A stretch of 64,000 bases of DNA from an uncultured Actinomycetota bacterium (GTDB taxonomy: Bacteria; Actinomycetota; Acidimicrobiia; Acidimicrobiales; Bog-793): the NCBI GenBank assembly GCA_963764805.1, contig CAVXUB010000001.1, positions 331,840 through 395,839 on the forward strand. The letters are read 5' to 3'. The notes below the pieces were generated by a model. It was not told the origin of the DNA. It made no database searches and worked only from the letters and a program-made list of their open reading frames with translations. The position numbers and the translations under genes are program-made. This document shows, piece by piece, positions 864-35,019 of this stretch. Position 1 is the stretch's first letter, and each line of letters begins with the position of its first letter.

Positions 864-937
864 GCGCTCGTAGCTCAACGGATTAGAGCATCTGACTACG
901 GATCAGAAGGTTGGGGGTTCGAATCCCTCCGAGCGCG
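864..937 (+). tRNA. tRNA-Arg (anticodon ACG)
   Basis: 74-nt cloverleaf folded by hand: acceptor GCGCTCG/CGAGCGC, D arm GCTC/GAGC, anticodon arm TCTGA-CTACGGA-TCAGA (anticodon ACG), T arm GGGGG-TTCGAAT-CCCTC. CCA is not encoded. Confidence 0.9.
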
Positions 938-938
938 C
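896..938. repeat. attL: 43-bp direct repeat (tRNA-Arg from anticodon loop to 3' end)
   Basis: ctacggatcagaaggttgggggttcgaatccctccgagcgcgc is identical base for base to 34977-35019. Confidence 0.85.
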
Positions 939-1007
939 TAGATATATCCAGTTCAGTACTCTTTCCGGCATGGTGTCACACCCCACAAGTAGGCTCTTGC
1001 TCTGTTG

Positions 1008-1028
1008 ACCCAACAGAAAACCCAACAG
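1008..1028 (+). promoter_or_regulatory. Paired ACCCAACAG motifs, candidate integrase/Xis arm-type sites (attL side)
   Basis: gACCCAACAG (1008-1017) and aACCCAACAG (1019-1028) are 11 nt apart. The same core recurs as 11-nt tandem pairs at 30557-30578 and 34831-34852. Confidence 0.4.
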
Positions 1029-1047
1029 TTCGGCAGGAAGGACAACC

Positions 1048-2236
1048 GTGGCAGGAAGCCTCCGGGCAGTGGCGGGACGTGCGGGAACATGGGAGCTCCG
1101 GGTGTATCTCGGCCGCGACTCGAACGGACGCGTCCGTCACCAGCACGTCACATTCAAGGGCTCACGCCGGCAGGCGGAGCGCGAACTTGCTCGACTAGTC
1201 GCGAATCACGACGCTAAGCCAGCCGCTGTCCCGGAGGAACCGACCCGGTTCGGGCCCACGTTCACGGTCAACGACGCCATCGCCGCGTGGCGCGACAACG
1301 GCTGGGCCGACCTCTCGCCGAAGACCACCCGTGGCTATGAGTCCACGTGGCGCGTCCACATCGAGGAGGCGATCGGCAAGCGTCGCATCGCATCGCTGAC
1401 GACCTATGACGTGGAGCATTTCTACCGTTCACTTAAGGCCGCGGGACAGGGGCCGGCTACCACAGGCCAGGTCAAGGCGCGTTCTCCATCGCTCACTCCG
1501 TCTGGCGCACAAGTGGAGCGGGGGAACGCTTCCGAACCCGGCCGCGGACGCAGAGCTCCCCAGCTGGGGCCTGGACGAGCGACGCCCTGAGGTGCGGGCA
1601 CCGGGTATCGACGAGATCGGTTCTCTGCTCCGGGCAGCGGACGACCGGGAGGACATCCGGTTCTCGACGTTCCTGCGACTTCTCGCAGCGACCGGGATGC
1701 GGAGGGGCGAGGCTTGCGCTCTCCGATGGTCCGACATTGACCTCAACGGCGCCACCGCCCATGTCGATGAGGCAGTCGTCAACGCGTCCGGCGGGGCGAT
1801 CGTAAAGGGACCGAAGACTCGGGCGAGCATCAGGACGTTGGCACTCGACCCTGAGACGGCAGAGCGCCTCAACGCCCTCCGAGTGGCTCAGACCGAGCTC
1901 GGAGCGGCGTGTGGGACTTCCTTAACGCCTGACAGCTTCGTGTTTTCGTTCGAGCCTGGCGGAAGCGTGCCACCACATCCGGACACCATGAGCCACACGC
2001 TGACCCGCCTCCGCGAACGCGCCGGTCTCGCGGCCGATATTCACCTCCACTCGCTCCGCCACTTCCATGCGACCGCAGTGGATTCAGTCGTGTCTGAGGC
2101 CCAGAAACAGGCCAGACTCGGGTGGTCGACCGTCCAGATGGCCCGCCACTACACCGACGGCGTCCCAGAGGAGGATCGTAGAGCTGCGGAGCACGTCGGC
2201 CGCCTGCTGACGGCCGCTCGGGCTGCGACGGGTTGA
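1048..2236 (+). pseudogene. int: Tyrosine recombinase / phage-type integrase, apparent frameshift near 1485
   Basis: The N-terminal SAM-like/core-binding part is in the frame of ORF 1048-1590. The catalytic part (RRGEACALRWSDID..HSLRHFHAT..ARHY) is in the frame of ORF 1406-2236. The gene lies directly downstream of the tRNA. Confidence 0.85.
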
Positions 2237-2472
2237 TACGCTGGTTCCTCGACCTGAAGAGGCGCCGCAGGGTCGAGCCCCTCGAGCAACCGCTCCACTG
2301 ATCGCCGTGGCACTCGCCAGCGACCACCAATCCGCCACACAGGCAGTGGAAAGGTGCCGCTACGCACGGCTCTATAGCAGGTGGCTCGACTCTCTCCGAG
2401 CAGAATGGCGGCCTCCTCAATGCTGAGCAGAGGTTTCGGAGCCGTACTTCGCCCGACGCCGGACCTCGTCAC
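2149..2472 (-). CDS. xis: Excisionase-family helix-turn-helix DNA-binding protein
   Basis: GTG start at 2472 preceded by GGAGGAGG. Sequence LLSIEEAAILLGESRATCYRAVRSGTFPLPVWRIGGRWRVPRRSVERLL matches the excisionase/MerR-like HTH pattern. The GTGA overlaps the stop of the upstream ATPase. Confidence 0.7.
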   Translation of the reverse strand: MTRSGVGRSTAPKPLLSIEEAAILLGESRATCYRAVRSGTFPLPVWRIGGRWRVPRRSVERLLEGLDPAAPLQVEEPAYQPVAARAAVSRRPTCSAALRSSSGTPSV

Positions 2473-3814
2473 GATGGTTCCTCCTCCGCTGAATCCGCTC
2501 CAGAGGCGCTGGTCGGAATCGGTAGGAACCCGGCACCTTTTCGGACCATTCGGCCGTCGGTGTTGAAGAGCTCCAACTCGCCGCTCGCGCAGATGTGACG
2601 GACGACGAAGGCCCGCTCGTTGACCCGCCAGAGCCCCTCGCCCTGGGCCAGCTCCGGTAGCTGCGCTACCTCGACGGAGGTGAGGCCGAGCAACTTGCCG
2701 GCAGCGTGGGCCTCGTCGAACGGCTCGTTGTAGAGGATGCGGGTGGCGGTGTCGCCGAGCAGGCCCTGAGCGAGCCCGCGTGCCTCTGAGCCGATGTCGC
2801 CGACGGCGTCGAGGTCGGAGAACCGGTGGACGACCATCAGGTTGGCGAGGCCGAACGCACGCGACAGCTTCCAATGCGCCTGCATCCGCGCGAGCAGGGC
2901 GGGTTGGGCGAGCAGCCGCCAGGCCTCGTCGTAGACGACCAGCCGCTGGCCGCCGTGCAGGGTCCGCCAAGGAGGCCTCCATCCAGGTGGAGGCGCAGGT
3001 CATGACGAGGCCGATCAGGGTGTCCGAGCCGGAGATGGCCGACAGGTCGAGCGAGAGCATCGGTAGCGACGGGTCGAACGCTACCGTGGAGGGGCCGTCG
3101 AAGAGCCCGGCCAGGTCACCCCGCACGAGGCGGGCGAGCGCGTGGGCGGCCTCGCGGCCGTCGGCCCGCAGCTGCTCGACACGTCGATCCCGCCGCCGGG
3201 CGTCTGCGGCTCAGCATGGCCTCGACCACCATGGGCAGGACGGGCGCCGAGCGTGCGCGGAAGCGCATCGCAGGGCGGCGTCGAGTGCCGAGCGCTCGGT
3301 CGGCGCAGAGGCGCGGCCGAGCGTCGACTCGGTCAGCGCCCCGAGCAGGCCGGGCCGGCGGCTCGCTGACCTGCGCCCGCCACGATGCGTCGTCCTCGCC
3401 AGCTGGGCGCGGCCCTTCGTCGAGCGGGTTGAGGCGCGCCGGGCTGCCGAACCCGAGCTGCGATCGCGTGGCCGCCGACCGCCTGGGCGACGACCGTCCA
3501 TTCGCCCTTCGGGTCTCCGGGGACGTACACCCGCCGACCAAACGCGATGCACCGGTCGGCCAGCGACTTGGCCAGCGTCGACTTGCCTCGCCCGATCTGT
3601 CCGGCCAGGAAGATGTTCGGGTTGGTCAGCGGCCTTGGCGGTAGAGCTCCCAAGGGTCGTAGCAGAAGGCCGTCCCCGACCAGGCGTCCTGGCCGATCAG
3701 CATCCCGGCCGAGCCGAGGCCCTCTTCGGCCAGGAACGGGTAGGCGCCGCCTAGGACCTCGGAGGTGGCCCGGTGCGGCGGGAGCCGCAGGCGCCGGTAG
3801 GAGCGCCCCGCCAT
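2469..3814 (-). pseudogene. VirB4/TraE-like conjugative ATPase, several frameshifts
   Basis: Pieces lie in three frames. The N-terminus is MAGRSYRRL..YPFLAEEGLG..CYDPWELY, Walker A is GQIGRGKST (ORF 3333-3653), and the C-terminal domain is ORF 2469-2885. Confidence 0.65.
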
Positions 3815-5574
3815 GGCGCCATTTTCACCCCCGGCAGGCAGGTACGGGCGATCGCGTCCTCGGCCCGCTGCCTCCAGCTCCGCTCGCCGGGCGGCCATTA
3901 GCTGCTTGCGGTGATCGGCCTCGGCCGGCGGGCAGCCTGCCTCGCCTTCCCTGCGGCGCGGCCGGCGGCGACCAGCCGTCATGCCGTAGAGGCGCGGGCG
4001 CCCGGCCTCGAGCGAGAGCCGGCGCGTAGCGGCGCGGCCTCGACCCGGCTCCGGAAGCCGACGGTGGTCGGACTCTGCGCCGCTCGCTGTCCAGCAGTCG
4101 GACCGCCGGCTGTCCTGGCCTCGCCGCAACTGGCATCAGAACGTGCTCCTCGCAAGGGGCAGGGCGGCGGCGACGAACGCCTGCAGCTGCCGGCCGTAGA
4201 GGGGGCGAACTTCGCAGCAGGCCTGGCGGCCGCCCGGCTGATAGTCGCCCGCGCGGCGTCGAGGTCGTCCGGCGTCGGCGCGTAACGGTGACGAGGCCGG
4301 TGAACTCGACGTCAGTGTGCCCGGAGATGATGGAGCGTTCCCGGGCTAGCAGGTCCTCGTACTCTTGTGCGTCCGAGAGGTCGGCGAGCTGGCCGAAGCT
4401 TGCTTTCTGTGCCTATCTGCGACTGCCTCTGTCTTCTCCCGGCGGATCTGGCGCAGCGCAGTGTCGGTCGGGAGCGGGCGGGCGAGAGATCGACAGCGTC
4501 CTGCGCACGCCGGAGCGAACACGAGCGGGTGCAGGAAGTCGGCGGGGACGGCGATGCGGGGCCACTCGCATACCCAGAGCACCTGGGACAGGCCGTGTCG
4601 TGGCGGAGGCGGTCCCAGCACTCCGCGACCGCCATCGGGCCGGCGTGGGCCAGGTTGGTGCCGGGGTCGCACGGCGGATCGACGCGCCTCGGGGTCGAAG
4701 ACGTCGCGGATGATGGCAGCCAGCTCGGCCTCGCGGAGCCAGCCGCCCGCCCGCAGCCCCGCCGGCGCGAGGGCGTCGGAAGCTGGCCATGTCGGCGCGC
4801 AGCACCTCGGCGGCGCCTCGCATCCCGCGGCCGGCCGCGCGCACGGCCCGGCCGGCGGCCTGCAGGTCGAGCGAAAGGCTGACCGTCGTGCGGTGGGTGG
4901 AGGAGTCGAGGGGGACCTGGTCCGAGCAGCGCGCTGGTACTGCGTGGCAGCCCAGCCCGCGTCCGGAGACCTTGCGCCTCCCACCACTCCCGCTGGCCGC
5001 GGGCCGGGTCCGGCACGGTGGCCTCGAGGACCTGCACCGCGGCGCAGGTGCCCGAGGGCGCCAGCCCGGCGAGGACCCGGCCCCAGCGCCCCACCCGAGC
5101 GCCCGGCTCGGCGTCGTCCAGTAGGGCGAAGGCCGGGTGGGTGACCAAAAGTGCCGCCGCCAGAGTCTGGCGGTGGGGGTCATGGACCATGGCCGCCCCG
5201 GAGGCCTCGTCGAGGTGCACCCGGAGAGAGGCGGCGTCGCCCGGAAGGGCCAGGGTTCCGGCCGGGCGGGGCTTGGAGGGCCGCGCCCGGAACTCGCGTC
5301 TGGCCGGCAGCCTTGCGGAACTGGAAGTGGGCGGCGGTGCCGCCCACTCTGCCGCCGGCCGCCCCGCGCAGCGAGCGAACGAAGCCGCAATCAGCGGTAC
5401 ACAGATGATCCCGCTGACGGCCGCGGCAGCGAGACCGCCGAGCGAACAGCGCCCCGATCGCAACGTCGCCCCGACGCCGAGCACGGCAACCCTCGGAGCG
5501 GAGAACCCGAGCAGGAGACCCCGGGTGGACGTGCGGGCGAAGCGTACCGTCGGCAGTGCCGTTGGCTGACTCAC
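3815..5574 (-). pseudogene. SCO6880-like conjugation membrane protein, frameshifted
   Basis: The N-terminus VRFARTSTRGLLLGFS is followed by TM segments (ORF 4312-5574). The later motif VLWVCEWPRIAVPADFLHPLVF lies in another frame (ORF 4346-4987). The 3' boundary is approximate. Confidence 0.5.
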
Positions 5575-5844: not shown

Positions 5845-6867
5845 TTACCTCCGGCCACAGGTCCGTTGGCAGCGCCAGGGCGGCGTCGTCCCCATCCTCG
5901 TCGCCCCGCCGGCGACGTAGGGAGCCGCCCTGTGGGCCATGCGGGCCGTTGCCATCAGCCCGAGGGTGGCGCTGGAGCTCAGTCCCCGCAGTTGCTGGGC
6001 GTGGCCGCCGGTGAAGTGAACGAGCCTGAGGGCGACCCAAGGTGCGAAGCCGGCCAGAAGGAGGACGATCACCCCCGAGATCAGCTGTGTGACCTTCTGG
6101 CTGGCGCCGCTGCCGGACTGGCCGGCGCCCGCGACGAGGATCTCGTATCCGGTGACGAAGATCAGCACGAGGATCAGCTTCGAGACCACGAGCGCCACGG
6201 TCGTCTCGATCCAGCGCCTCGTCCACGAGATGGTGATGTCGGCCAGGGACCCGGCGAAGGCGACCGGGGCGAAAACGGCAGTGACGACGATCAGCACCTT
6301 GCGCACGACGAGCGAGCTGTAGACGACGACCGTCGCCGCGATGCATCCGAGCGACAGCAGCAGCAGCGAGGCGGACCCCGTGACGACCGACGTCAGAGCG
6401 GTCGCCCCGAGCACGAGCTTGCCGAGCCCCGCCACGTCGGTCCCCGTTGCCCAGCGCACGACCTCTCCGGAGAGAGCGTCGGTGGCGACGAGGAGCACGT
6501 TAACGACGGCGATCGCCAGGGCGCCGCCGATGAAGGCGACGATCAGTCCCCGGCAGGCGCGTGCCAGGCCGCTCCCGTCGCGCCGTAGGACGCTTTGGAT
6601 CAGCTGGATCAGGAACAGGCCGAGGCCGACCGTGCCGGCGATGGCAGTCACCATTGCCAGCTCGCGATCGAAGCCTGCGCCCCCGAGCCGCACTGCGGTG
6701 GCAGCACTCATCTGCGACCACAACCAGTTGACGGCGTGTTCGGCGGCGGTGCCGAAGCTCTCGGCGATGGCGTGGAAGGCGTCGCCGGCGACGGACTTGG
6801 CGACGGACTTGGCGGCGTCGGCGACGCAGCTCCCGTAGGTGGTCGGGTCGTACCATTCGCAGCTCAC
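5845..6867 (-). CDS. TrbL/VirB6-like polytopic membrane protein
   Basis: GTG at 6867 overlaps the upstream stop (GTGA). At least 6 hydrophobic segments are present. A Gly/Ser/Pro-rich tail may continue in ORF 5571-5858 after a frameshift. Confidence 0.55.
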   Translation of the reverse strand: MSCEWYDPTTYGSCVADAAKSVAKSVAGDAFHAIAESFGTAAEHAVNWLWSQMSAATAVRLGGAGFDRELAMVTAIAGTVGLGLFLIQLIQSVLRRDGSGLARACRGLIVAFIGGALAIAVVNVLLVATDALSGEVVRWATGTDVAGLGKLVLGATALTSVVTGSASLLLLSLGCIAATVVVYSSLVVRKVLIVVTAVFAPVAFAGSLADITISWTRRWIETTVALVVSKLILVLIFVTGYEILVAGAGQSGSGASQKVTQLISGVIVLLLAGFAPWVALRLVHFTGGHAQQLRGLSSSATLGLMATARMAHRAAPYVAGGATRMGTTPPWRCQRTCGRR

Positions 6868-7724
6868 AGCTCCGACTCCTTCCAGTCCGAGACGAGCGCC
6901 GCGCCGTAGCTGTCGGCAAAGCGCGCCGAGCCGACCTGCACGACGAGCCAGAAGCGTCGCCTCGTCACCGAACGTCCCCGCGTCACCGACAAGATCCCCG
7001 AGACGTCCTCGACAGCGGCGCGCAGGTCCTGCGGCTGCCAACCGGCGTCGACCATCGACTGCCACTCCGGGTCGAGCTGCACCTCGATGTCGCTGGCTGA
7101 GAACCGGACGTGTTCTCTCGCGTCGAGGGCCCAAGGTCCTGCGGAGGGCAGTGGGAATAGTCCACGTGCCAGGGACGGCTCCATCACTGAGACGTAGAGC
7201 GTCCTCTCGGCGAAGGCGGCCGGGATGCCGGGCATTAGGTCAGGCGCCGACTCCGCAACCAGCCAGGCTCCGAGCGCACTTCGCGTCTGGCGGGTGAAGT
7301 CGACGTCCAGGAGTGCAGTCACGAACCCGCGGACGAAGCCGTCGGGCGTGTCACTCGGTGCCAACGCCGGCCAGCCGCCGCCAATAGCCGGCCGCGGGAG
7401 CTCGAGACTCTCAGCCAGCTTGATCGTCGACTCGTCGGAAGACGAGGAGAGCCCCTGCGCCAAGCCGTCGTCGTATTGCCGTTGGACGGGCGTCTCTGCC
7501 GGCACAGTCGTGGCGGGGGCCACGGGCCTCCAGCGGCCGAACGGCGCCGTCGGGGGCGTCGTCGAGGTCCGGGTGGGGGATCCGGCGGTCGGCGATGCCG
7601 TCTGCCGCGGAAGCATCGTGCGACCTGGGTTCGCCGGGGAGACCAGGATCCTGATCGTCCCGAGGACGGCGAGCAGCGTCCCGACGATGACCGCCGCCCC
7701 GACGAGGATGCGGCGCCCCCTCAA
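6864..7724 (-). CDS. Single-pass membrane protein of the conjugation operon (possible VirB8/TcpC-like role)
   Basis: N-terminal TM segment (ILVGAAVIVGTLLAVLG), a Pro/Thr-rich linker and a globular C-terminal domain. Function is assigned by position only. Confidence 0.45.
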   Translation of the reverse strand: MRGRRILVGAAVIVGTLLAVLGTIRILVSPANPGRTMLPRQTASPTAGSPTRTSTTPPTAPFGRWRPVAPATTVPAETPVQRQYDDGLAQGLSSSSDESTIKLAESLELPRPAIGGGWPALAPSDTPDGFVRGFVTALLDVDFTRQTRSALGAWLVAESAPDLMPGIPAAFAERTLYVSVMEPSLARGLFPLPSAGPWALDAREHVRFSASDIEVQLDPEWQSMVDAGWQPQDLRAAVEDVSGILSVTRGRSVTRRRFWLVVQVGSARFADSYGAALVSDWKESEL

Positions 7725-8008
7725 AGCTGTGCTCCCGCAGAGGCGAAGAAGTTGACGAGGGCGACGGCCCCTCCCGTCAGTGCGGCCGCCACGAACGCCA
7801 CCAGCACACCGCTCTTTCCCTTGGCGGCGAGCGACGGGTTGGCCGAGTGGTTGCCGACGGCCCAGACGATGGCCGACATCACCAGGCCGGCCAGGCTGGC
7901 GACGAGGCCGATCGTGAGGAGCGCTCCGACGATGTTCTCGAGCTCGGAGATTCCCGGCAGGCCCGAACTGTTCGGCGTCACGCTGACGCCCGATGCGAGG
8001 ATGATCAT
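7721..8008 (-). CDS. Small two-TM hydrophobic protein (VirB2/VirB3-like position)
   Basis: ATG at 8008 is preceded by AAGGAGAG. The protein is 95 aa with two hydrophobic helices. The longer 159-aa ORF in the track has an implausible N-terminal extension. Confidence 0.5.
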   Translation of the reverse strand: MIILASGVSVTPNSSGLPGISELENIVGALLTIGLVASLAGLVMSAIVWAVGNHSANPSLAAKGKSGVLVAFVAAALTGGAVALVNFFASAGAQL

Positions 8009-8075
8009 GCTCTCTCCTTGTCGTTGGTGGTTGGTGTTGGTGGACTGCTGTCGAAGTCGTGATGCGGCTTGCTGG

Positions 8076-9109
8076 TCAGTCGCGGGCCGCCGGATCGCGA
8101 AGCGCGATGAGCCCTCTGGAGACGAAGCTCTGCACAGCGACGCCGTAGCGAGGGTCGATCGCCGACTCCACGAGCCCGTCGCCGAGGTAGATCCCGACAT
8201 GGCGGGCGAGCCCCGGCCCGGGCGAGTCGCGGTCCGGCACGAGCACCCGATCCCCGGCGACGAGTTGCGAGGCGCTCACCTCGACGCCTTCTTGCTGCTG
8301 GAGCTCGCGGCGTGCGCAGGGACGACGCCGACGCTCGCCCATGCCGCCATCGTCAGCCCCGAGCTGTCGTAGTGCGGGGTTCCCGAAGCACCCCAGAGGA
8401 AGGGCTTTCCGAGCTGCGCCAGGGCGAAGCGGACGACCGCCGCATCCTCGGGTGGCGTCGCCGGCGGGAGCACGTAACCGGGAGGGGGGCCATGCCCGCC
8501 TACGGACGGCGAACCGACACCCTGTCCACACTGGCCGGGGTGGTCTGCGTGGGCGAGGACGTGGGTCACGATCTTGGCCGCCTCGGGCCATGCACGGCGG
8601 AAACGCTCCATCTCCGATGGCGGTGCGCCCTCGACCTCCTGGGCGATCGTCCAGGGCGGGCGGGACCGCCATTGCGGCCGCGCCAGGACCCGCTCGGTGA
8701 ATTCCGCCGACGCGTAGGAGGAGACCATGAGCTGCGCAGGTGTTCCCCACGTCCCCGGGCGGAGTTGAAAGAGACCGAAGCGGCCACCTGCACGGTCCAA
8801 GTTCTCCAGGTCGCTCTCGACGAGCGTCGCCACGAGCACGATGCGAGCAGCCCTCGTGTCGAACCTGGATGCCGTCATCGCCACCGACACGATGTGGTCG
8901 GCGTTCGCCGCCTGCGCGCTGGTGAGCCCTCTCACCGGACCGGTGACCGAGCACGTCCGGGCTGCCAGCGCGCCCCCACTGATGACGGCATCCGAGGCCG
9001 ACCCGTCGTCTTCCCCGCCAGCGACGGCCAGCCCGACGACGAGCACGAACGTCAGAGCTAGAGCAGCCAGGGCGGCGCCAACCAGTCCACGTGACGGGCG
9101 ATGGCTCAC
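8076..9109 (-). pseudogene. Secreted cell-wall hydrolase with C-terminal NlpC/P60 domain, frameshift near 8290
   Basis: GTG at 9109 overlaps the RepSA stop. An N-terminal TM/signal segment and a transglycosylase-like region lie in ORF 8276-9385. The NlpC/P60-like end (GKPFLWGASGTPHYDSSGL..HVGIYLGDG) continues in ORF 8076-9305. Confidence 0.65.
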
Positions 9110-10428
9110 GACGCCTCCTCGAAGCGTCCCTCGAGTCGCAACGCCAGCCACGCCTCGAGGCGTTGTTCCTGCCGGCGCTGCTCGATGCCCCGCGCCAGGC
9201 GCCTGTCGATCTCGAGGCGGAGCCCCATTCCCTCGAAGCGCCACTCGGTCGAGCCCACCTGCTCGGGATCGCCGTCCGCTTGTGCTCTCCAGGCCCGGCG
9301 GGCACGGCGCAGCGCCCCGAAGGTCGTCGAGTAGTGGCGGCTTTTCGTCAATACATGGCCTGCGAACCCGAACATATGTGCCCATCGGCCGCAGGATGCG
9401 TTCTCCTCGGACCTGCCGAGGGCGAGGGCCGTCTCGACGAGGCGGCGCACGTGGTCGGGCAGCTGCATCACCGCCAGGTGCCCTTCTCGGATGCGCCGGT
9501 CTAGCGCACCGGTCTCCTCGACGGTCTTGACCGTGTACTTGCTGACATACGAAGAAATTCTTCTGGCGTCGGCACCGGTGATCGGGTCAACTTTCAGCTG
9601 GCTGCCGAACGCCAGCACGACGTCGCCCTCTCCCACGGTCTTGCGCACGCGCACGGCCCGCACCGCCGACACGAGTGCCTGGGCGAGCAGCGCGGCGTCG
9701 ATGCCTTCGGGCGCCCCCACCTCTTCGTCGACCGAGTCAGCTCGCAGCACGCCGTGCAGGTGCACGACTCCCCGGCGCTGGAACTCGACGCACTTCACAT
9801 ACGAGAGCCGGACGCTCTTTCGAAGCTCGGACTCGCTCGTCCCCATGGCGTAGGCGAGCTGGCGGAAGGAGTAGATGGTGACCCGTCGCCACAGCTCGCT
9901 AGCCGTGGCGTTGAACAGGACACAGCCCTCGTAGTCGAAGCAGTCCGCGCAGATCGGCGTGCCGACCACGTCGTCCTCGTCGCCGTGGCCTCCGCGGCAG
10001 TGGCGCTGCCGGCCGTGCGGGCACCTGCCGGGAACACCGAGCTGGCAGGTACCGCCCCGCGCACTGTGGACAGCCCCGAAGCTCGGGCCTGTCAGTGTGA
10101 AGAACACCGCCGGGTGCTCGGTCACCGACTCGGGTACTCCCTTTCCGCCCACGAGGCCCGCGCCGACCACCTGGCGGGCGTCGCCCCGGTAGAGGGCTGC
10201 ACAGGAGGGACAGCGGCTCTTCCGCCTAGTTCCGCAGGCGACGAGCAGCACTCCGTCGGGCTCGCCACGGGTGTCGTAGCCGCCGTCACGGCCGTGCCCG
10301 ACGAGGCGGATCGGCTGGCGGCACCCGCCGGTGCGCTCGAGCCTCCACCAGAGCGAATCGAGCTCTCCCGCCCGCTCGGCGAGAAGGTCTCCCTCATCGC
10401 GCGTATCGCGATGCGTCTGGGCGATCAC
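9106..10428 (-). CDS. RepSA-type replication initiator protein
   Basis: About 440 aa from the GTG at 10428. Motifs FFTLTGPSFGAVH, a Cys-rich segment and VEFQRRGVVHLHGVLR match pSAM2 RepSA-family initiators. The N-terminal part of the 650-aa ORF in the track is read-through into the ftsK-like gene. Confidence 0.75.
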   Translation of the reverse strand: MIAQTHRDTRDEGDLLAERAGELDSLWWRLERTGGCRQPIRLVGHGRDGGYDTRGEPDGVLLVACGTRRKSRCPSCAALYRGDARQVVGAGLVGGKGVPESVTEHPAVFFTLTGPSFGAVHSARGGTCQLGVPGRCPHGRQRHCRGGHGDEDDVVGTPICADCFDYEGCVLFNATASELWRRVTIYSFRQLAYAMGTSESELRKSVRLSYVKCVEFQRRGVVHLHGVLRADSVDEEVGAPEGIDAALLAQALVSAVRAVRVRKTVGEGDVVLAFGSQLKVDPITGADARRISSYVSKYTVKTVEETGALDRRIREGHLAVMQLPDHVRRLVETALALGRSEENASCGRWAHMFGFAGHVLTKSRHYSTTFGALRRARRAWRAQADGDPEQVGSTEWRFEGMGLRLEIDRRLARGIEQRRQEQRLEAWLALRLEGRFEEAS

Positions 10429-11816
10429 TGAGCACCGCCCTCGCGGAGATGCACTGCCCGGCTGGCGATCGCCGCGATCTCGTCGTCTTCGAGGCGGAAG
10501 GTCCGGAACCGGCGCGGCACGCCGCCCTCGGCGAGGAGGTAGCCGACTCCGCGGAGAGCCGGGTCGATGTCCGCCGCGCTGGCGCCCTTGGACGCCCAGC
10601 CGCCGCCGAGGATCGTGTCTGACGCCTCCCGTGTGGTGCAGCGATGGGCAAGTCGGAACCCGAACAGATCGCGAAGAGCCGACGGGACGAGGTCGGCGGA
10701 CGGCTTCTGGGTGGCAGCCACCACGACGATGCCCGCCGCACGCGCCGCGCCACCAGGTCGCGGAGGCGCTCGGTGAAGGCCTGAGCGGCCTTCTTGTCGG
10801 GACTCGCCACGTAGAACGCGAGCTCGTCGATGACGATGAGGACCAGCCGCTCGCCGTCGCCGGGCACAACCTTGCGAGCAGAGCGCTGGCGCAGCCGCTC
10901 GTAGCGGGCCTCCATCTCTGCCTGCAGCTCGCGCAGTGCTGCGGTCGCTTCCTCCATGTCGGGCCCGACGAAGCGCGTGGCGACCGGGCGCCAGGCGTCG
11001 AGCTCGACGAGCTTGCCGTCGAAGAGCCAGATGTCGGTGTCCGGGGAGAGGGCGCCATGGGCGAGGATCACCGACAGTGACACGGACTTCCCAGAGCCGG
11101 GCTCGCCGCCAACCAGCAGATGGGTGCCCACGAGGCCGACCTCCGCCGGCTCGGCGCGCTCGTCGAGGCCGATCCTCACCGGTTGGTGGAGGGTGAAAGG
11201 TCCGGACACGGTTGGCGCAAGGGCCGGGCCGGCGAGCAGGTGCACGGGACGGATTGCCGAGCGGAGCGGCTCGGCGCGGCACCACCACCAGCTCGGCGAG
11301 GGCGGCGTCGGCCGGATCGGGGCGCAGCTGCACCGATCGCGCCCGGAGGTAGGCGGCGATCGCCCCGAGGTGCGCCTCGATCGAGGCGACGTCGCCGCCG
11401 GGCCTCACCTGCACGTGTATCGACTCGCCGTTCGGGCCTCCGGTGATCCTCCGCACGACCGGGGCGTGCAGCTCCATTGCCGCCAGCAGTGCCAGCTCCG
11501 CGCCGCGGCGCTTGTAAGAGAGCCGGACGAGGCGCCAGAGAGCACGGCGCAAGGGAGACGCGACCGATAGTGCGAGTGCAGCGGTGCAGACGAGCACCGA
11601 GCCCCGGACTGCGCCTAGGAAGTGGACGGCGCCCGCCGCCACCGCGACCGCTCCGAGCAACGGCCCGAGCGCCGGGAGACAGGTGCGGCGCCGCTTGCGG
11701 GCGAGCTCGGCCCGATCGGTGCCCGGCCGGCCGGCGGTCTGAATCGTGACGGCCGCGGTGCCCCCCCACACGAGGAGGAGCACCGCGACCGCCAACGAAA
11801 GGCGACTGTCGTGCAT
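10425..11816 (-). pseudogene. FtsK/SpoIIIE-family DNA translocase (Tra/coupling protein), frameshifted
   Basis: N-terminal TM segments. Walker A GEPGSGKS and Walker B LVLIVIDELA lie in ORF 10394-11245. The C-terminal part (IVVVAATQKPSADLVPSALRDLFGFRLAHRC) lies in the frame of ORF 10425-12410. Confidence 0.8.
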
Positions 11817-12140: not shown

Positions 12141-12315
12141 TGCTGTTCCTTTCTGTTGGAGATGACGGCCGGGGTTCCCGGTCGTCCCCGTGGCGGTGCC
12201 ACGAGACCTTTTGCATTGCCGGCGAGCGATTGCTGGCGGGAGGGTGCGCTGCGCGGCGAAGCTCTCGGCCGTGCGGGGAACGCGGACGGCGGGAGGATGT
12301 GTCGCGGCCCTCCTC

Positions 12316-15310: not shown

Positions 15311-15322
15311 CAGGCAGTCCTC

Positions 15323-16140: not shown

Positions 16141-16142
16141 GA

Positions 16143-20921: not shown

Positions 20922-20927
20922 GCTAGG

Positions 20928-21884: not shown

Positions 21885-21897
21885 TGGTGGCCTCGCT

Positions 21898-22818: not shown

Positions 22819-22833
22819 CTCAGCGCGATACTC

Positions 22834-28510: not shown

Positions 28511-29749
28511 TCAAGACGCGTCAACTACTGCGACATTGCCGCCGCTTGTTGTACCAACGGCGACGCACAGCTGAACAGTAGGACAGCTGACAGAGGTAAG
28601 CGGCGGCAAAGCCGGTGCGCTTAACACCGACCATGAGGAGCCTCGATAATGAAACACCACGTCGCCTGATCCACTCGTATTGTTGGCCAGATATGCATCG
28701 AAACCGAGCGCGACACAGTCTGTTGAGGTAGGACACGACACTCCAGTCATAGTCGTATCCTGGCTAACTGCCGAGGTGTCAGTGCCCATAAATACAGCTC
28801 CGGTCCACTGAGATCCGTCGAACATGAGATTGTCCATACCAGGTTGAGTTTGAATAAAACTTCCGACTGCTGCACAGAAATTAAGAGCTGGACAGCTTAC
28901 CGAGTTCATTTCATCGTAAGTACTCAGGGTGCCATTCGATGATGGAGTGGGATACGAAAGCGACCAGGTATCTCCAGAGTATTGAAGAATTACACCGATA
29001 CTGATGACGCCGACTGCTACGCATGTTGTGGCGCTTGAGCACGACACGCCAGACAACCTATTTGGAGTCACTCCGTCGAAGAGAGAGGGTAGTGCCATAG
29101 GAGTCCAGGATGATCCATTGAATTGGAACACGTCATCGGAGTTGGTGCCTGCTGGCGTTCCCACGGCAATGCAATTTGCTTGATCTGTACACGAGACAGA
29201 GTTGAGATGAGACTCGTCTGATATTGCCCACCGCTGTACCCAACGCGAGCTCAGCAGTTGCACCGCTACTCCGCCCTGCGGGCCTGATCCAACGGCTAAA
29301 CAGTCGGCGCTTGAAATGCACGAGATGCCAGTGAGACTCGTTACGCCAGCGGGCACGGGGAGCACGTTCCAGTTTCCGTCTTCGTCCGCTAGCGCTACTG
29401 GTGTCGAACCGTTCTCGTTTTGCCCTACCGCGACGCACGTCGTCGCGCTGGCGCACGAGACGGCAAGCAAGGTACCCGTGAGGTGGGGTACCGACTGAGT
29501 CTCCCACTTATAGATCACAGGAGAGCTGGTCATAGTCGTTGTAACCTGCCCTGGAATTGTCGAAGTAGAGGGAGACCCAGACTGACCAGATGGGGTTGCT
29601 GAGAGAGGCGTCGAGCTGCTGGCTGTCGTGGAGGAAGCCGCCGTAGAGGGGGAAGTGGTCCCGCCGCACCCGGCGGCGCCGGTGACCACACCCAACACAG
29701 CGATGGTTCGTAGTCGAGCAATGGTGATGGTTTTTCCCCAACGTGGCAT
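28511..29749 (-). CDS. Lipoprotein with about 8-9 beta-propeller-like repeats, each carrying a Cys pair (VSCxSxxxCxAVG)
   Basis: Lipobox-like VTGAAGC followed by a Ser/Thr-rich linker. Repeats include SCASATTCVAVG, SCISSADCLAVG, SCTDQANCIAVG, SCSSATTCVAVG, SCPALNFCAAVG, SCPTSTDCVALG and SCPTVQLCVAVG. GC is clearly lower (about 50% by eye). Confidence 0.7.
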   Translation of the reverse strand: MPRWGKTITIARLRTIAVLGVVTGAAGCGGTTSPSTAASSTTASSSTPLSATPSGQSGSPSTSTIPGQVTTTMTSSPVIYKWETQSVPHLTGTLLAVSCASATTCVAVGQNENGSTPVALADEDGNWNVLPVPAGVTSLTGISCISSADCLAVGSGPQGGVAVQLLSSRWVQRWAISDESHLNSVSCTDQANCIAVGTPAGTNSDDVFQFNGSSWTPMALPSLFDGVTPNRLSGVSCSSATTCVAVGVISIGVILQYSGDTWSLSYPTPSSNGTLSTYDEMNSVSCPALNFCAAVGSFIQTQPGMDNLMFDGSQWTGAVFMGTDTSAVSQDTTMTGVSCPTSTDCVALGFDAYLANNTSGSGDVVFHYRGSSWSVLSAPALPPLTSVSCPTVQLCVAVGTTSGGNVAVVDAS

Positions 29750-29879
29750 CGTCCGTTCCTCCCATGGTGCGACCACTACTCCTGGTCACGGGCACTCTAT
29801 CAGGACGTACTTAGTTGGGACGTATTTTCTCTGGACCGAATGAGTTGGGACGGATGTGGTTGGGAGGTCATGCCCGCCC

Positions 29880-30272: not shown

Positions 30273-30644
30273 CCGTCTGTGGAGAGTCCCTGAGCTGCCA
30301 GGTCCCCTAACACGGCCATGTGCACAGGTGGTTGTGGGCGGCTGTCCGGTCGGATCAGCCCCGGGCTACGTCTTTCGCCGCAGGCAACTCACCCGCGACC
30401 GGACCCGCTTGCCAGCGGTCCGACATGGCATCGACCGACGCCGACCAGGACGCGAGTGCCGACCATGTCGCGCGCTGAAGTCCCACTGCCCGCTTCGGCA
30501 TCTGACGCGAAGTCAGATTTCGCCCAGGCCGCGGCTCCTGGTCGCGAGCCACGGACGACCCAACAACGACCCAACAAGGGCGTCTCACGGCGTCTCCCGG
30601 CGTCACTCCCGTCGGCGAAGACGTCGCGGCGGTCCCCTGCGACC
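30273..30644. repeat. 372-bp direct repeat, copy 1
   Basis: Aligns by eye with 34547-34919, with about 15 differences. The first ~200 bp are nearly identical. It contains the tandem cgacccaacaa x2 at 30557-30578. Confidence 0.9.
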
Positions 30645-31099
30645 GAGGCGCAGTTCGGTGCCTTCGGGGGGCAACCCTGGTACATCCCGGGTGTCCCAGG
30701 CGCTACCTACGTCGCGAGGGATAAGGAATCCTTGCCGTTCGTGGCGAAGATGATCCTGCCGGCGACGGTCACGTCGGACCTCACCACATGTTGGCCTTCG
30801 ATGAGGCGGCCGGAGGCTTTCGCGTGGTCGACGTCGGCGACGCTGGGCCGGCGGAGGGCTCCGATGAGGAGTTCGCAGCGCTGCGCGCAGCGTTCCTTGA
30901 CAGGCCGTCGCCTGCCGGCAGCGCCTGAAGTGAGGTAGCGGGGCCTGGTGCCATCCCTAATCCATCCCTACTATCCGCTCGGAATGCGCCGCCGACGAAT
31001 CCCAGCCCTCAAGCGGCATCGCAACAAAACACCACGTCAGGACCCTAATCGGGACTCACACCCGAAGGTCGCGGCAACCGCTCGGTGCGAATCACCGTC

Positions 31100-31939
31100 T
31101 CAGCGAAGGCCGCCGACGCGGCGGATCATGGCGTCGAACGCCCGGTCCGGGAGCCAACGCCGCAGGAAGAGGAGGGGCTTGGCGCCCATACCGACGGCAT
31201 AGCGGGTCTTCGGTCGGCGAGCGGTTGCGGCCTTGGTAACTGCCTTCGCGATGACCTCGGGAGGCGAGGAGCGCTTGGCGGTCGCCTCGGATTCGAACAC
31301 CTCGGCGACCGCTCGGGCTTGATCGGCGTAGGCGCCGTTGCCCGAGGTCTCCCGGAGGTGGTCGGCGGCGATCCCGCTCCACTCGGTACGGATGCCACCC
31401 GGTTCGATGATGACGACGTCGACCCCGAACGGCTTGGTCTCGATACGCAGGCTGTCGCTGAAGCCTTCCAAGGCGAACTTGGTGCCGTGGTACCAGGCGC
31501 CGAACGGTGTGTGGATCTTGCCGCCCATCGACGTGATGTTGATGATGGTGCCGCTGCGCTGTGATCGCATCGAAGGGAGGACAAGTTGGATCAGCCGGGC
31601 AGCACCGAAGACGTTGACCTCGAACTGACGCCGGGCCTCGGCGAGCGGAACGTCCTCGACAGCACCGTAGGAGCCGTACCCAGCGTTGTTGACCAGCACG
31701 TCGATGCGACCCGCTTCGGCCAAGATCTGCTTGACACCGAGCGCTGTCGATTCATCGTCGGTGACATCCATGACGAGCGTCTTCATGCCGCGGTCCCGCA
31801 GTGTCTGCATGCGGTCGCTCCGGCGAGCGACGCCGTACACCACGAAGCCAGCTTCGTGGAGCCGTAGGGCGGTGGCTTGCCCGATTCCCGACGATGCGCC
31901 GGTGACGAGAGCGACCTTCTGAGGCATCTTGGTGGTCAT
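31100..31939 (-). CDS. Short-chain dehydrogenase/reductase (SDR)
   Basis: Intact 279 aa with TGASSGIG, NNAG and YHGTK motifs. Confidence 0.9.
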   Translation of the reverse strand: MTTKMPQKVALVTGASSGIGQATALRLHEAGFVVYGVARRSDRMQTLRDRGMKTLVMDVTDDESTALGVKQILAEAGRIDVLVNNAGYGSYGAVEDVPLAEARRQFEVNVFGAARLIQLVLPSMRSQRSGTIINITSMGGKIHTPFGAWYHGTKFALEGFSDSLRIETKPFGVDVVIIEPGGIRTEWSGIAADHLRETSGNGAYADQARAVAEVFESEATAKRSSPPEVIAKAVTKAATARRPKTRYAVGMGAKPLLFLRRWLPDRAFDAMIRRVGGLR

Positions 31940-31954
31940 TAGCGACTCCTTGCT

Positions 31955-31980
31955 GTAAGGTGATTAATGGTTCACCTTAC
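31955..31980. promoter_or_regulatory. Inverted repeat GTAAGGTGA-N8-TCACCTTAC, candidate TetR operator
   Basis: Perfect 9-bp arms in the 97-bp divergent SDR/TetR intergenic region. Confidence 0.45.
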
Positions 31981-32036
31981 ATACTGAACCAAGATTCATG
32001 TTTTGGCAAGTGATCTGACAAGGAAGGGGACAACAG

Positions 32037-32603
32037 GTGGCGCAGGTCCGGCCTCGTCAGGGGCGAGCTGACGCCGTTCGAAACCGCGTGAGCATCCTCG
32101 ATGCGGCACGGGCGCAGATCACTGCGCACGGGCCTGAGGTGGGCATGGTTGAGATAGCCCGCTCTGCCGGCATTGCCGTCGGCACGCTCTACCGTCACTT
32201 TCCAACCAAAATGGACTTGGTTGCTGCCGTCGTGAGCGGGTTCGTCGAACAAGTTGCCGACGAAGCTGACGCAGCGGTAGCTCGTTTGAACCAGGGCAGC
32301 CCGGCGTTCGTCGAGCTGTCAGGACTCTTGCGGTACATCGTCCGGGAGTCTGCGACGAACCACGCCGCGAAGGCGGCCGCCCTTGATCTAAACGCCGACG
32401 TCGATGACGCAGGGGATGTCCAGCGGGCAGCGGCGGCAGTCCAAACGTTGATCGACGCGGCTCGTGGCGACCGAGAAGTGCGGGACGACCTCGCGATCGA
32501 CGACTTCTACCTGCTGGTAGCCAACGTGCCACACCAGCCGCCAGCCGACCTCGATCGTTTGGTGGACCTGCTCCTGTTCGGTATCGCAGGCCCGCATTCG
32601 TAG
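32037..32603 (+). CDS. TetR/AcrR-family transcriptional regulator
   Basis: Intact 188 aa. N-terminal HTH: VRNRVSILDAARAQI..VEIARSAGIAVGTLYRHFPTK. Confidence 0.9.
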   Translation: MAQVRPRQGRADAVRNRVSILDAARAQITAHGPEVGMVEIARSAGIAVGTLYRHFPTKMDLVAAVVSGFVEQVADEADAAVARLNQGSPAFVELSGLLRYIVRESATNHAAKAAALDLNADVDDAGDVQRAAAAVQTLIDAARGDREVRDDLAIDDFYLLVANVPHQPPADLDRLVDLLLFGIAGPHS

Positions 32604-32936
32604 TCGGCGCCTGCCACTGACAGCAGATCCCAAGCACAACTCGCAGCGGCAGCAACCAACGAGGACACGTCGTGCCTGGCGGACGCTCGGAACCCCCGTA
32701 AACGTTGACGACGCACATCAGACCACACGGGCTCACGGGGGAAGGTAGCGGGTGGAACACCCGGGAATCTTCTCGACACACTGCCATCGCGCCACGACGA
32801 GAGGGGTGTTCCGAGGGGGACGGCCCTGAGGGGGTCTGTCCGGCCCTCCCACAACGGGTGCACAGGGAGTTCACTTGGTACAGACCGGACCGAGCGGCCG
32901 CCCGACAGGAGGTTGCATGACCGAGGAGAACAGCAC

Positions 32937-33963
32937 GTGCGTGGAGTAGTGATGGAGGCACCGGGGATCATTCATGTCGAGAGGCGCGAAGACCCGAAGA
33001 TCATCGATTCGACGGATGCGGTCATCCGCCTGACGGCGACGTGCATCTGCGGTTCGGATCTGTGGCCATACCGAGGGGTCGAGCACGTCGACCACATGCC
33101 GATGGGCCACGAGTACGTCGGTGTGGTCGAGGAGATCGGGTCCGCCGTGAAGACCCTGAAGGTCGGCGACTTCGTCGTCGGCTCCTTCGTGATCTCCGAC
33201 AACACCTGCGAGATCTGCCAGGCCGGGTACCCGTCGAAGTGCGTGAACGCTGAGTTCGTGTCGATGACGATCGGAACCCAGGCGGAGCGCGCCCGCATCC
33301 CGCACGCCGACGGCACCCTCGTCGCCACCCCCGGCCAGCCGGGCGCCGGATCTCATCCCCTCCCTGCTGGCCGCTTCTGACGTGCTCGGTACCGGCTGGT
33401 TCGCCGCCGAGGCCGCCGAGGTCGGCCCCGGCAAGACCGTTGGCGTCGTCGGTGACGGTGCCGTCGGCCTGATGGCCGTCCTCGCCTCGAAGCAGCTCGG
33501 GGCCGAGCGGATCGTCGCCATGTCTCGCCACGCCGACCGTCAGAAGTTCGCCATCGAGTTCGGCGCCACCGACATCGTCGAGGAGCGCGGCGAGGCGGGT
33601 GTGGCCAAGATCAAGGAGATGACCGGTGGGCTGGGAGCCCACAGCGTCATCGAAGCCGTGGGGACGGACGAGTCGATGCGGCAAGCGATCGCATCGACTC
33701 GCGGTGGGGGGCATGTCGGGTACGTCGGGGTCTCCCATGAAGGCTCCACGATTGCCGCCGACGAGCTGTTCTTCGCTGAGGTCCACCTGTTCGGTGGCCC
33801 AGCCCCCGTTCGGCGGCTGCTCCCGAAGCTGATCCAGCTCATATGGGACCGCAAGATGGACCCAGGAAGGGTCTTCGACCTCACCCTGCCGCTCGAAGAG
33901 GCCGCCGAGGGCTACCGAGCAATGGACGAGCGGCGAGCCATCAAGGTCCTGCTCACCCTGTAG
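32937..33963 (+). pseudogene. Zinc-dependent alcohol dehydrogenase (MDR family), 1 frameshift near 33340
   Basis: GTG at 32937 lies 8 nt after GAGGAG. CGSDLWPYRG..GHEYVGVVEEIG and GVVGDGAVGL are split between ORFs 32913-33380 and 33382-33963. Confidence 0.85.
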
Positions 33964-34029
33964 ATCCGCCCGGCCAGCCTGTCCGTGTCGGCGTCGCCCG
34001 ACAGGACGCGGCCCTAGCCTGGAGAGGCC

Positions 34030-34265
34030 ATGACAACCAAGGATGAGATCCGGGAGTTCCTGGTCTCCCGCCGAGCCAACATCACCCCCGAGCGGGCGGG
34101 CATTCCTCGATTCGGCGAGCAGCGGCGTGTTCCCGGGCTGCGCCGTGAGGAGGCAGCCGAGCTGGCTGGCGTCAGCCTCGACTACTACACCCGACTCGAG
34201 CGGGGAAACCTCAGCGGCGCATCCGACAGTGTCCTCGCCGCGATCGCCGACGCCCTCCAACTCAG
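34030..34265 (+). pseudogene. MmyB/XRE-like HTH regulator, N-terminal fragment only
   Basis: IREFLVSRRANITPERAGIPRFGEQRRVPGLRREEAAELAGVSLDYYTRLERGN..VLAAIADALQL. The family-typical C-terminal domain is absent and the sequence changes character after about 34265. Confidence 0.6.
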
Positions 34266-34546
34266 AGGAGGGTGCCCAGGAGCGGGCGCTTGCGCTCGCC
34301 CGCCTCGACAGCGGCGCGAGCGCCGGCGAGCCCGAGGCGCACTTTCGCCTGGCGACCACGGCGCTGACCGCGGGCCTGGTCGAGGAGGCCCTGGCGGCGG
34401 CTCGGGACACCGCCGAACACGCGGCACCGTTCGAACGACTCGACTTCCGGCGCCGGCTCGATCAGCTCGTGGCGGATTGCCCGGAACTCCAGGCTGACGC
34501 AACGGCCGTCGGTCTAGTTCTGCTCGGTGAGTCCCGGGCCGAGGCG

Positions 34547-34919
34547 CCGTCTGCGGAGAGTCCCTGAGCTGCCAGGTCCCCTAACACGGCCATGTGCACA
34601 GGTGGTTGTGGGCGGCTGTCCGGTCGGATCAGCCCCGGGCTACGTCTTTCGCCGCAGGCAACTCACCCGCGACCGGACCCGCTTGCCAGCGGTCCGACAT
34701 GGCATCGACCGACGCCGACCAGGACGCGAGTGCCGACCATGTCGCGCGGTTGAAGTCCCACTGCCCGCATCGGCATCTGACGCGAAGTCAGATTGCGCCC
34801 AGGCCGCGGCTCCTGGTCGCGAGCCAGGGACGACCCAACAGCGACCCAACAAGTGCGTCTCACGGCGTCTCACGGCGTCACTACCCGTCGGCGAAGACGG
34901 CACGGTAGTCCCTGCGACC
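34547..34919. repeat. 372-bp direct repeat, copy 2 (57 bp before attR)
   Basis: See copy 1. It contains cgacccaacag cgacccaacaag at 34831-34852. Confidence 0.9.
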
Positions 34920-34976
34920 AGCGGAAATGAGACGTCATCGCTCGGCGTGAGACTCGGCGGGACATGCCTGAGCCGC

Positions 34977-35019
34977 CTACGGATCAGAAGGTTGGGGGTT
35001 CGAATCCCTCCGAGCGCGC
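34977..35019. repeat. attR: 43-bp copy of the tRNA-Arg 3' part
   Basis: Identical to 896-938. The tRNA 5' half is not present here. Confidence 0.85.

Follow-up and report, generated by a model that had tools for sequence, protein, structure and literature searches.

A probable tRNA-Arg-targeted, pSAM2-like integrative element carrying a VirB4-type gene block in an uncultured Actinomycetota bacterium

The analyzed window is a 64,000-nt stretch of contig CAVXUB010000001.1 (positions 331,840 to 395,839, forward strand) from the assembly GCA_963764805.1 of an uncultured Actinomycetota bacterium assigned to the Acidimicrobiales, and it contains an island of about 34.1 kb (896-35019) enclosed by two copies of the 3' part of a tRNA gene. 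The sole tRNA gene in the window, tRNA-Arg(ACG), was called on the + strand by ARAGORN, in agreement with a match to the Rfam model RF00005 at 864-937 (69.4 bits); a search of the whole window at the Rfam gathering threshold returned no RNA family besides tRNA. What recurs at the right end of the island is a segment of this gene that begins in the anticodon loop and ends with the C next to the discriminator base, and both the repeat search and direct reading gave 43 identities in 43 positions between 896-938 and 34977-35019. The bases flanking each copy differ, hence the repeat is exactly 43 nt long; by our own estimate, about 1e-17 perfect 43-mers are expected by chance in 64 kb. A blastn-short search found no tRNA 5' half at the right end, where neither ARAGORN nor Rfam calls a tRNA, and the same method with the tRNA and the core as queries detected no third core copy in the window, degenerate ones included, giving elsewhere just chance matches of 8-10 nt. 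Thus, the original prediction of a perfect 43-bp repeat that covers the tRNA between anticodon loop and acceptor end, and whose right copy lacks a tRNA 5' half, is borne out, and the concern raised with it, that the right copy might belong to an overlooked second tRNA gene, is removed by the absence of any second tRNA in the window. The right-hand core is followed by CA, indicating that before the insertion CCA was part of the tRNA gene itself (GCGCG-CCA, 35018-35022), whereas the present gene at the left end reads GCGCG-CTA (937-941); the insertion has thus cost the gene its CCA, which a CCA-adding enzyme must now supply to the tRNA.

The tRNA gene is followed, after a gap of 109 nt, by a tyrosine integrase gene that starts with GTG at 1048. 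Homologs of 387-398 aa, about 70% identical in tblastn, align from the first residue of the integrase and over its whole length, the Phage_integrase match has an E value of 1e-19, and from QVKA to VLHR the alignment moves into another frame, as a single additional base would cause. The excisionase gene (2466→2149) converges on int and overlaps its 3' end at 2236; its product scores 36.9 bits against TIGR01764 (cut-off 28.8) and is 62% identical to the excisionase of an Acidimicrobiales bin (L010). Both genes had been foreseen, as a tyrosine recombinase 110 bp after the tRNA and an excisionase-type helix-turn-helix gene converging on its 3' end, and homology searches agree on each point, including the HTH_17 assignment of the latter. 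The coordinates of all features are collected in Table 1.

Genes of the island were delimited by homology and three-frame scans, gene calling by third-position GC content, codon scores and a frame-plot hidden Markov model being too noisy there. The genes to the right of xis form a − strand series with the backbone order tra-rep-xis-int, which is of the pSAM2 type apart from a 6.6-kb insert between rep and xis that encodes a VirB4/CmdB-like ATPase, proteins of the SCO6880, SCO6881 and DUF6112 families, and an NlpC/P60 hydrolase. The initiator is matched by the RepSA model PF20199 with 406 bits (cut-off 34) and by NF041486 with an E value of 4e-92. Much of the remaining assignment was made by comparison with L015, a 9.7-kb contig from another sample that is collinear with 6187-14274 at 74.5% nucleotide identity and in which all of those genes are intact; the block thus represents a conserved, functional architecture. 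The translocase aligns with its intact 464-aa counterpart on this contig in three pieces over two frames (62-80% identical, tblastn), and the best NCBIfam match of the counterpart is plasmid TraB, far below the cut-off. The NLPC_P60 and BTAD domains of the hydrolase and of the divergent membrane regulator were likewise detected in the L015 copies, with a RipC-like match for the hydrolase in the window itself; the L015 copy of the small SCO3933-family protein matches NF051478 with an E value of 5e-16, and the regulator is conserved beside tra. The SCO6881-family protein is 78% identical to its L015 homolog, and no plasmid relatives of it were found. In the VirB4-like gene the Walker A and Walker B segments lie in different frames and at least four frame changes are present; the hand-joined protein matches the VirB4 structure PDB 4AG5 with an E value of 1e-8, and AAA_10 weakly.

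Scans of 0.9-16 kb and of the cargo, in which some small open reading frames (ORFs) were left unscanned, revealed no VirD4-type coupling protein (PF02534), and the window scans matched no relaxase of a recognized mobilization (MOB) family, TrwC included. Rep_trans was also absent from the scans, the initiator being RepSA and the translocase matching TraB and FtsK models only, not TcpA.

Table 1. Coordinates of the features of the island and of its tRNA target in the window; arrows give the direction of genes on the − strand
Feature	Coordinates	Strand	Evidence
tRNA-Arg(ACG), integration target; 3' part is attL	864-938	+	ARAGORN, Rfam RF00005
attL core, left copy of the 43-bp direct repeat	896-938	+	Repeat search, 100% identity; sequence read
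ACCCAACA tandem pair, P' arm, candidate integrase arm-type sites	1008/1020 (1008-1027)	+	Motif count; conserved in relatives
Tyrosine integrase, ~396 aa, 1-nt insertion near 1480	1048-2236	+	Pfam Phage_int_SAM_3 and Phage_integrase, two ORFs
Excisionase, HTH_17, "excise" family, 105 aa	2149-2466	−	Pfam HTH_17, E 3.5e-11; TIGR01764
VirB4/CmdB-like ATPase, several frame changes	3814→2469	−	PDB 4AG5, weak AAA_10, weak NCBIfam VirB4
SCO6880-family (CmdC-like) protein, frameshifted	5574→4150	−	NF042935 positions 4-200 in one frame, 260-476 in another
SCO6881-family (CmdD-like) polytopic membrane protein, intact	6867→5845	−	NF047967, E 1e-24
Conserved protein, function unassigned, intact	7724→6864	−	61% identical to 274-aa L015 gene, same position; no Pfam match
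DUF6112 small membrane protein, intact	8008→7721	−	Pfam DUF6112, E 1.4e-19; 90% identical to L015 homolog
NlpC/P60 cell-wall hydrolase, frameshift near 8315	9106→8076	−	tblastn with 353-aa L015 protein, two frames
RepSA rolling-circle replication initiator, 440 aa, intact	10428→9106	−	Pfam RepSA, E 2.4e-121
TraB-like FtsK/SpoIIIE DNA translocase, frameshifts at ~11260 and ~10745	11816→10428	−	Pfam FtsK_SpoIIIE (PF01580)
SCO3933-family small regulatory protein, frameshifted	12140→11819	−	tblastn with 107-aa L015 gene
Membrane-anchored BTAD regulator, divergent from tra block, frameshift near 12406	12232-14452	+	49% identical to 711-aa L015 protein, two frames
IS21 IstB remnant, frameshifted	16143-16972	+	IstB_IS21 positions 3-167 and 169-234 in two ORFs
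IS3-family transposase C-terminal fragment	17125-17412	+	rve_2 and rve_3
PARIS-like AAA ATPase and DUF4435 (AriA/AriB-like) defence gene, frameshifted	19400→17477	−	Pfam DUF4435; PADLOC AriB, AriAB, AriA
IS630-family insertion sequence, terminal inverted repeats, TA flanks	19745-20920	+	HTH and DDE_3; ends read
Two cargo genes, one unassigned, one D-glutamate cyclase-like	20928-22833	−	GLUCM-like_C, E 1.5e-61
195-bp internal-deletion (MITE-like) IS630 derivative, inverted orientation	22834-23028	−	Adjoining inverted repeats; ends read
Type II restriction endonuclease, frameshifted	24471→23295	−	PADLOC REase_II
EcoRI-like methyltransferase, frameshifted	25752→24496	−	PADLOC MTase_II; Pfam EcoRI_methylase split over three ORFs
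Secreted Cys-repeat protein	28511-29776	−	Translation; no Pfam match
DR-A, second copy of right (P) arm; ACCCAACA pair 30558/30569, no core after it	30273-30644	+	Repeat search
3.9-kb block between arm copies (SDR, TetR, Zn-ADH, HTH_31)	30645-34546		Pfam
Short-chain dehydrogenase/reductase (SDR)	31100-31939	−	Pfam
TetR regulator	32037-32603	+	Pfam
Zinc-dependent alcohol dehydrogenase (Zn-ADH), frameshifted	32913-33963	+	Pfam
HTH_31 regulator	34030-34567	+	Pfam
P arm of attachment site; includes DR-B 34547-34919	34547-34976	+	Motif positions; repeat search
attR core, right copy of the 43-bp repeat, without tRNA 5' half	34977-35019	+	Repeat search; sequence read

The ends of the island carry further signs of an attachment site. 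Eight copies of the octamer ACCCAACA are present in the window, where 0.74 would be expected; every one of them is on the + strand and within the island, and six form three tandem pairs with a spacing of 11-12 bp. One pair (1008/1020) lies 70 and 82 bp beyond the left core, immediately upstream of int; another (34833/34844) lies 133-144 bp left of the right-hand core; and the third belongs to DR-A, an internal copy of the right arm. A CCCAACA pair with 12-bp spacing (GCCAACA in L012) precedes int in every related locus (L005-L012 and L013), whatever the target tRNA, and in the complete relative L013 the pairs are placed 60/72 bp beyond one core and 131/143 bp before the other, so that the distances to the core match between the two elements. 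From this conservation we conclude that the ACCCAACA pairs are likely arm-type integrase sites, and the right end of the island accordingly looks like a genuine attP arm. Another motif, GTCTCACGGCG, is present as a tandem pair and one inverted copy between the arm sites and the core (34857-34877 and 34943-34953; also 30582-30602), and with one mismatch allowed it is not enriched across the window; it could be a site for Xis or a host factor, or nothing. The internal and terminal arm copies, 30273-30644 and 34547-34919, constitute a 372-bp duplication that is 96% identical and sharply bordered, with no similarity around the two copies past 372 bp and no RNA family inside. DR-B is followed by the core 57 bp further on, whereas DR-A has no core.

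The integration module has relatives at several tRNA genes. Integrases that are 57-71% identical to the window copy sit about 90-115 bp downstream of tRNA genes for Arg, Lys and Thr. The int-xis pair, with the same overlap, is found on unrelated contigs downstream of tRNA-Arg(ACG) in L010 and L012, of tRNA-Lys in L005-L008, and of tRNA-Thr in L009 and L013. In L005-L012 no second tRNA copy was found within 10 kb, these elements being longer than the stretch searched. One complete relative of 9.2 kb (L013/L014) encodes an integrase 57-59% and a RepSA 65% identical to the window copies, and its ends are marked by a perfect 44-bp repeat derived from tRNA-Thr(TGT), which likewise covers the part between anticodon loop and acceptor end. 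The nearest named homologs of int and RepSA come from Acidimicrobiales bins. Within this single int-xis family (57-71% identical) the coupled transfer modules vary: a TrwC relaxase in L005-L007, the relaxase PF03432 in L009, RepSA and FtsK in L010, and RepSA alone, with no translocase, in the 9.2-kb element L013. The pattern looks like modular shuffling, and L013 may be a mobilizable element that is not self-transmissible.

Cargo makes up the right two-thirds of the island and includes several insertion sequences (ISs) or their remnants as well as defence and restriction-modification genes. The IS630-family copy has the terminal repeats GTGGTCCGTCGC, and together with the 195-bp derivative, which resembles a miniature inverted-repeat transposable element (MITE), it brackets two genes (19745-23028) in an arrangement that resembles a composite transposon. 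For the IS21 remnant, the + frames of 14400-16200, upstream of IstB, gave no Pfam match and hence no IstA. The GC content is 57-65% at 17-30 kb and 74% at 3-6 kb, compared with 66-70% in the flanks. To the right of 35.0 kb the genes are of ordinary chromosomal types and include those for an ECF sigma factor, CutA, a UvrA paralog that is about 83% identical to those of many Actinomycetota, a sulfatase, a P450 and a thiolase. On the question of an actinobacterial host, the window adds to this paralog and to the Acidimicrobiales homologs of int and RepSA a GC content of 67-70%, but no marker gene. The first gene right of attR (35444-36958, −), which matches BNR/Ycf48-like families, and the cargo gene 28511-29776 (−) both encode secreted proteins with similar Cys repeats (...VSC...C.AVG...). 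The original prediction had placed genes for conjugation and replication, IS elements and cargo of odd composition between the repeats and ordinary chromosome beyond 35.0 kb. The content now identified, namely RepSA, the TraB-like translocase and the VirB4-type block (by homology), the IS630, IS21 and IS3 copies or remnants, the low-GC cargo, and the chromosomal types of gene in the right flank, fits this outline throughout.

Taken together, the stretch 896-35019 is very probably one integrated mobile element of about 34.1 kb that targets tRNA-Arg and resembles pSAM2-type actinomycete integrative and conjugative elements (AICEs), with a VirB4-type block in addition. The classical order of tRNA, integrase and distal direct repeat that is typical of genomic islands and integrative and conjugative elements (ICEs) had been proposed for this locus, and every structural part named in that proposal holds under homology tests. 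The integrase and Xis would excise the element as a circle by binding to its arm pairs and core, and RepSA would replicate this circle by the rolling-circle mode; the FtsK-like motor, aided by a membrane complex of the VirB4 type and the wall hydrolase, may then move the DNA to a recipient, where the integrase would re-insert the element at tRNA-Arg.

The element shares with pSAM2 of Streptomyces ambofaciens and its kin an integrase and excisionase at the 3' end of a tRNA gene, a tRNA-derived direct repeat, a RepSA initiator, an FtsK/SpoIIIE (TraB-like) translocase and an SCO3933-like small gene. Its regulator-tra-rep-xis-int order is that of the pSAM2-like Streptomyces plasmid NZ_CP109278 (GntR-FtsK-spd-RepSA-xis-int), which has no block resembling a type IV secretion system (T4SS). 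In contrast to AICEs, which are usually 9-24 kb long, the window element measures 34 kb, carries the VirB4/CmdB-SCO6880-SCO6881-DUF6112-NlpC/P60 block between rep and xis, and has its nearest relatives in Acidimicrobiales metagenome bins rather than in Actinomycetales; its regulator is a BTAD membrane protein instead of the GntR-type KorSA, and RepSA is less than 40% identical to any plasmid copy. AICEs are defined by the absence of T4SS genes (PMC10484663), and the literature separates them, as elements with an initiator and an FtsK-like motor, from T4SS ICEs with a relaxase, VirD4 and VirB4 (PMC3218068, PMC3429521, PMC10484663). The island has the tRNA-derived repeats with the tRNA at one end, the adjacent integrase and the excisionase of a tRNA-targeting element, and the RepSA-type initiator and single FtsK/SpoIIIE-domain transfer protein (the window copy over two frames) of an AICE; however, its VirB4-like ATPase, SCO6880, SCO6881, DUF6112 and NlpC/P60 genes break the rule that excludes T4SS genes. 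Of the T4SS-ICE hallmarks (PMC3218068), it has the VirB4-like ATPase, in a fragmented gene, and the above scans showed neither VirD4 (PF02534) nor a MOB relaxase.

Two kinds of known system bear on the extra block. The combination of a CmdB/SCO6878 VirB4-like ATPase with the SCO6880 and SCO6881 families recalls the cmdABCDEF / SCO6871-6884 clusters and SLP2.21-23 of Streptomyces. Homologs of CmdB/C/D-type genes on SLP2 are required for plasmid transfer (PMC2782261), whereas the chromosomal cmd operon of Streptomyces serves sporulation, not transfer; unlike the cmd clusters, the window block lies inside an integrative element, beside RepSA and tra. The mating-pair formation type MPF_FA of Tn916, ICEBs1 and pCW3, in which an FtsK-like coupling protein is paired with a relaxase related to rolling-circle replicases (PMC4027160), also combines an FtsK-like ATPase and an initiator of rolling-circle type with VirB4, a polytopic membrane protein and NlpC/P60 in a single operon-like block that is flanked on one side by int and xis. 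However, the window initiator is RepSA (PF20199) rather than Rep_trans/MOBT, its translocase scores best against TraB rather than TcpA, and the Orf13-23 families of Tn916 were not detected in the window. The resemblance to MPF_FA is one of layout, not of family.

These parallels invite a reading in which transfer is of the T4SS type and single-stranded, as for Tn916, ICEBs1 and pCW3, with RepSA nicking the DNA as a relaxase, the FtsK-like protein serving in coupling, and VirB4, SCO6880, SCO6881, DUF6112 and NlpC/P60 forming the channel, in contrast to the double-stranded TraB mode of AICEs. Its grounds are the gene set and order shared with MPF_FA, including a relaxase related to rolling-circle initiators inside the mating-pair formation region and a VirB6-like protein, the likelihood that actinobacterial relaxases are being missed (PMC4027160), the backing of VirB4 by PDB 4AG5, and the conservation of the block, intact, in L015. 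We nevertheless regard it as doubtful: the best family of the translocase, albeit far below the cut-off, is TraB of Streptomyces plasmids, the SCO3933-family gene and the pSAM2 order indicate an AICE lineage, no Rep_trans, TrwC or VirD4 domain was present in the sequences scanned, and CmdB/C/D-type genes also occur on Streptomyces plasmids of the TraB type such as SLP2 (PMC2782261). Since the division between AICEs and T4SS ICEs in the literature stands against the parallels with SLP2 and MPF_FA, we file the element as AICE-like and leave its transfer mode open. A prophage would likewise have its integrase and excisionase genes next to a tRNA and be bounded by direct repeats, and the NlpC/P60 hydrolase could be its lysin; this reading is extremely improbable and was rejected, as none of the Pfam, NCBIfam and PADLOC scans gave a match to a capsid, terminase, portal or tail family, genes such as RepSA, the TraB-like translocase and VirB4 belong to plasmids or ICEs, and a viral contig collection contained no relative.

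The duplicated arm raises the question of how many elements are present. It is quite possible, if somewhat short of an even chance, that two related elements stand in tandem at the tRNA, a full one ending at DR-A and a 4.3-kb remnant (30645-35019) with a P arm and core of its own, deletion having removed the internal core and a second integrase. The 372-bp right arm occurs twice with sharp borders and a ACCCAACA pair in each copy, the core is attached to the second copy only, and the first 200 nt of the copies are identical and the remainder about 92%, as expected of related arms that were partly homogenized. Moreover, tandem and three-repeat AICEs are documented in Streptomyces and Frankia, for instance Sav3708/Sav3728 in a tRNA-Arg gene and Fean6303 with three repeats (PMC3218068), and the presence of more than one attachment-arm copy at one tRNA likewise implies accretion. 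Unlike those cases, the internal arm copy of the window lacks a core, hence only the outer pair can recombine; no third core or integrase remnant is present, the block between the arms holds just redox and regulator genes, and single-crossover capture or a local duplication would look alike. As a hypothesis, accretion of two elements is the simplest history of the duplicated arm, which suggests that the last 4.3 kb are left over from another, related element that was added at this site.

Frameshifts in the island could also mean that it is a decayed, immobilized remnant in which these are real mutations and the repeats mark an irreversible past insertion. Beyond the 1-nt insertion in int, comparison with the intact L015 genes reveals that frameshifts break the translocase gene twice and the genes of the hydrolase, the BTAD regulator and the SCO3933-like protein once each; the VirB4-like gene adds its frame changes, and the IS21 and IS3 fragments have no partner genes. 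The density of located frameshifts is apparently higher in the island, at about 0.65 per kb against about 0.3 per kb in the flank, in an uneven survey. However, chromosomal genes are split likewise: the sulfatase model falls into two frames (positions 1-200 and 201-301), the P450 into two or three, and Thiolase_N and Thiolase_C into three. Amino-acid conservation runs residue for residue across the breaks, with conserved protein on both sides and no internal stops or deletions, which fits long-read indel errors; the 43-bp repeats remain identical, and no break affects RepSA, the SCO6881-like gene, DUF6112 or the 286-aa gene. Decay is therefore unlikely, although it deserves slightly more credit than T4SS-type transfer, and as an island-specific cause of the split integrase it was rejected, since chromosomal genes are split too; some island genes may nonetheless be truly decayed. 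The same comparison makes the frameshifts uninformative on the activity of the island. The window is probably an indel-rich, likely long-read assembly, the alternative for the chromosomal breaks being very recent pseudogenes. All proteins encoded by the source contig are singletons. Frameshifts were also seen in a chromosomal TrmH-like methyltransferase and a secreted protein (46600-64000), example chromosomal break positions being ~47200, ~48000, ~51450, 62400-62500 and 62700-63900. Frame changes are densest, about one per 200-300 nt, at 2900-3850 in the VirB4-like gene, where GC is highest (74%), which fits a composition-dependent sequencing error.

Several of these observations weigh against a single, functional element. 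DR-A is a copy of the arm without a core, so that the single-element picture is simplified; int carries its insertion, and the translocase, the VirB4-like ATPase, the SCO6880-like gene and the hydrolase are frameshifted at the higher island density. If those frameshifts are real, the element is dead, and the IS21 and IS3 pieces are true remnants in any case. In addition, neither an empty attB nor an attP junction was found in the searches below, and excision and insertion are thus inferred from the anatomy alone. The left-flank YgjP-like protein retrieved from GTDB genomes just 40-46% matches in unrelated taxa, and a metagenome scan with it gave nothing, as did an exact metagenome search for the attR/attB junction. 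The viral contig collection contained no relative of the integrase, exact-protein look-ups returned nothing for the integrase fragment, RepSA or the chromosomal protein 41603-42877, and the genome, metagenome and viral collections searched contained no close relative of the host. A 1.4-kb contig assembled from the short reads of a different run (Logan ERR11594400; L001), which was compared with window 1-892, encodes an identical left-flank protein and ends about 29 nt into the tRNA gene (~window 892), which indicates that the same organism was present in that sample.

The preferred reading, a tRNA-Arg-targeted element with an AICE-like backbone, thus places the island among the known tRNA-integrating conjugative elements of actinomycetes, in which a VirB4-type accessory block is unusual but not unprecedented. 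More speculatively, and with about as little confidence as for single-stranded transfer, the element might represent an undescribed lineage in uncultured Actinomycetota, intact in L015 and related to L010 and L013, that joins an AICE backbone (RepSA, TraB-like motor, SCO3933-like gene, int/xis) with a VirB4-type channel; RepSA might double as a relaxase and the FtsK-like motor as a coupling protein, and its integrases would share an arm code (paired ACCCAACA) and differ in tRNA target through their cores. Pseudogene calls in an unpolished assembly of this kind, the split integrase included, are not safe to read as biology. The locus provides an integrative conjugative element whose borders are fully defined, from a lineage of actinobacteria that has been little sampled, and the predicted attP layout, a core with paired arm motifs at conserved distances, is directly testable. 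If the VirB4-type block indeed works with the RepSA and TraB-like genes, the split between AICEs, with double-stranded transfer by a single motor, and T4SS elements, with single-stranded transfer, would be blurred in Actinobacteria.

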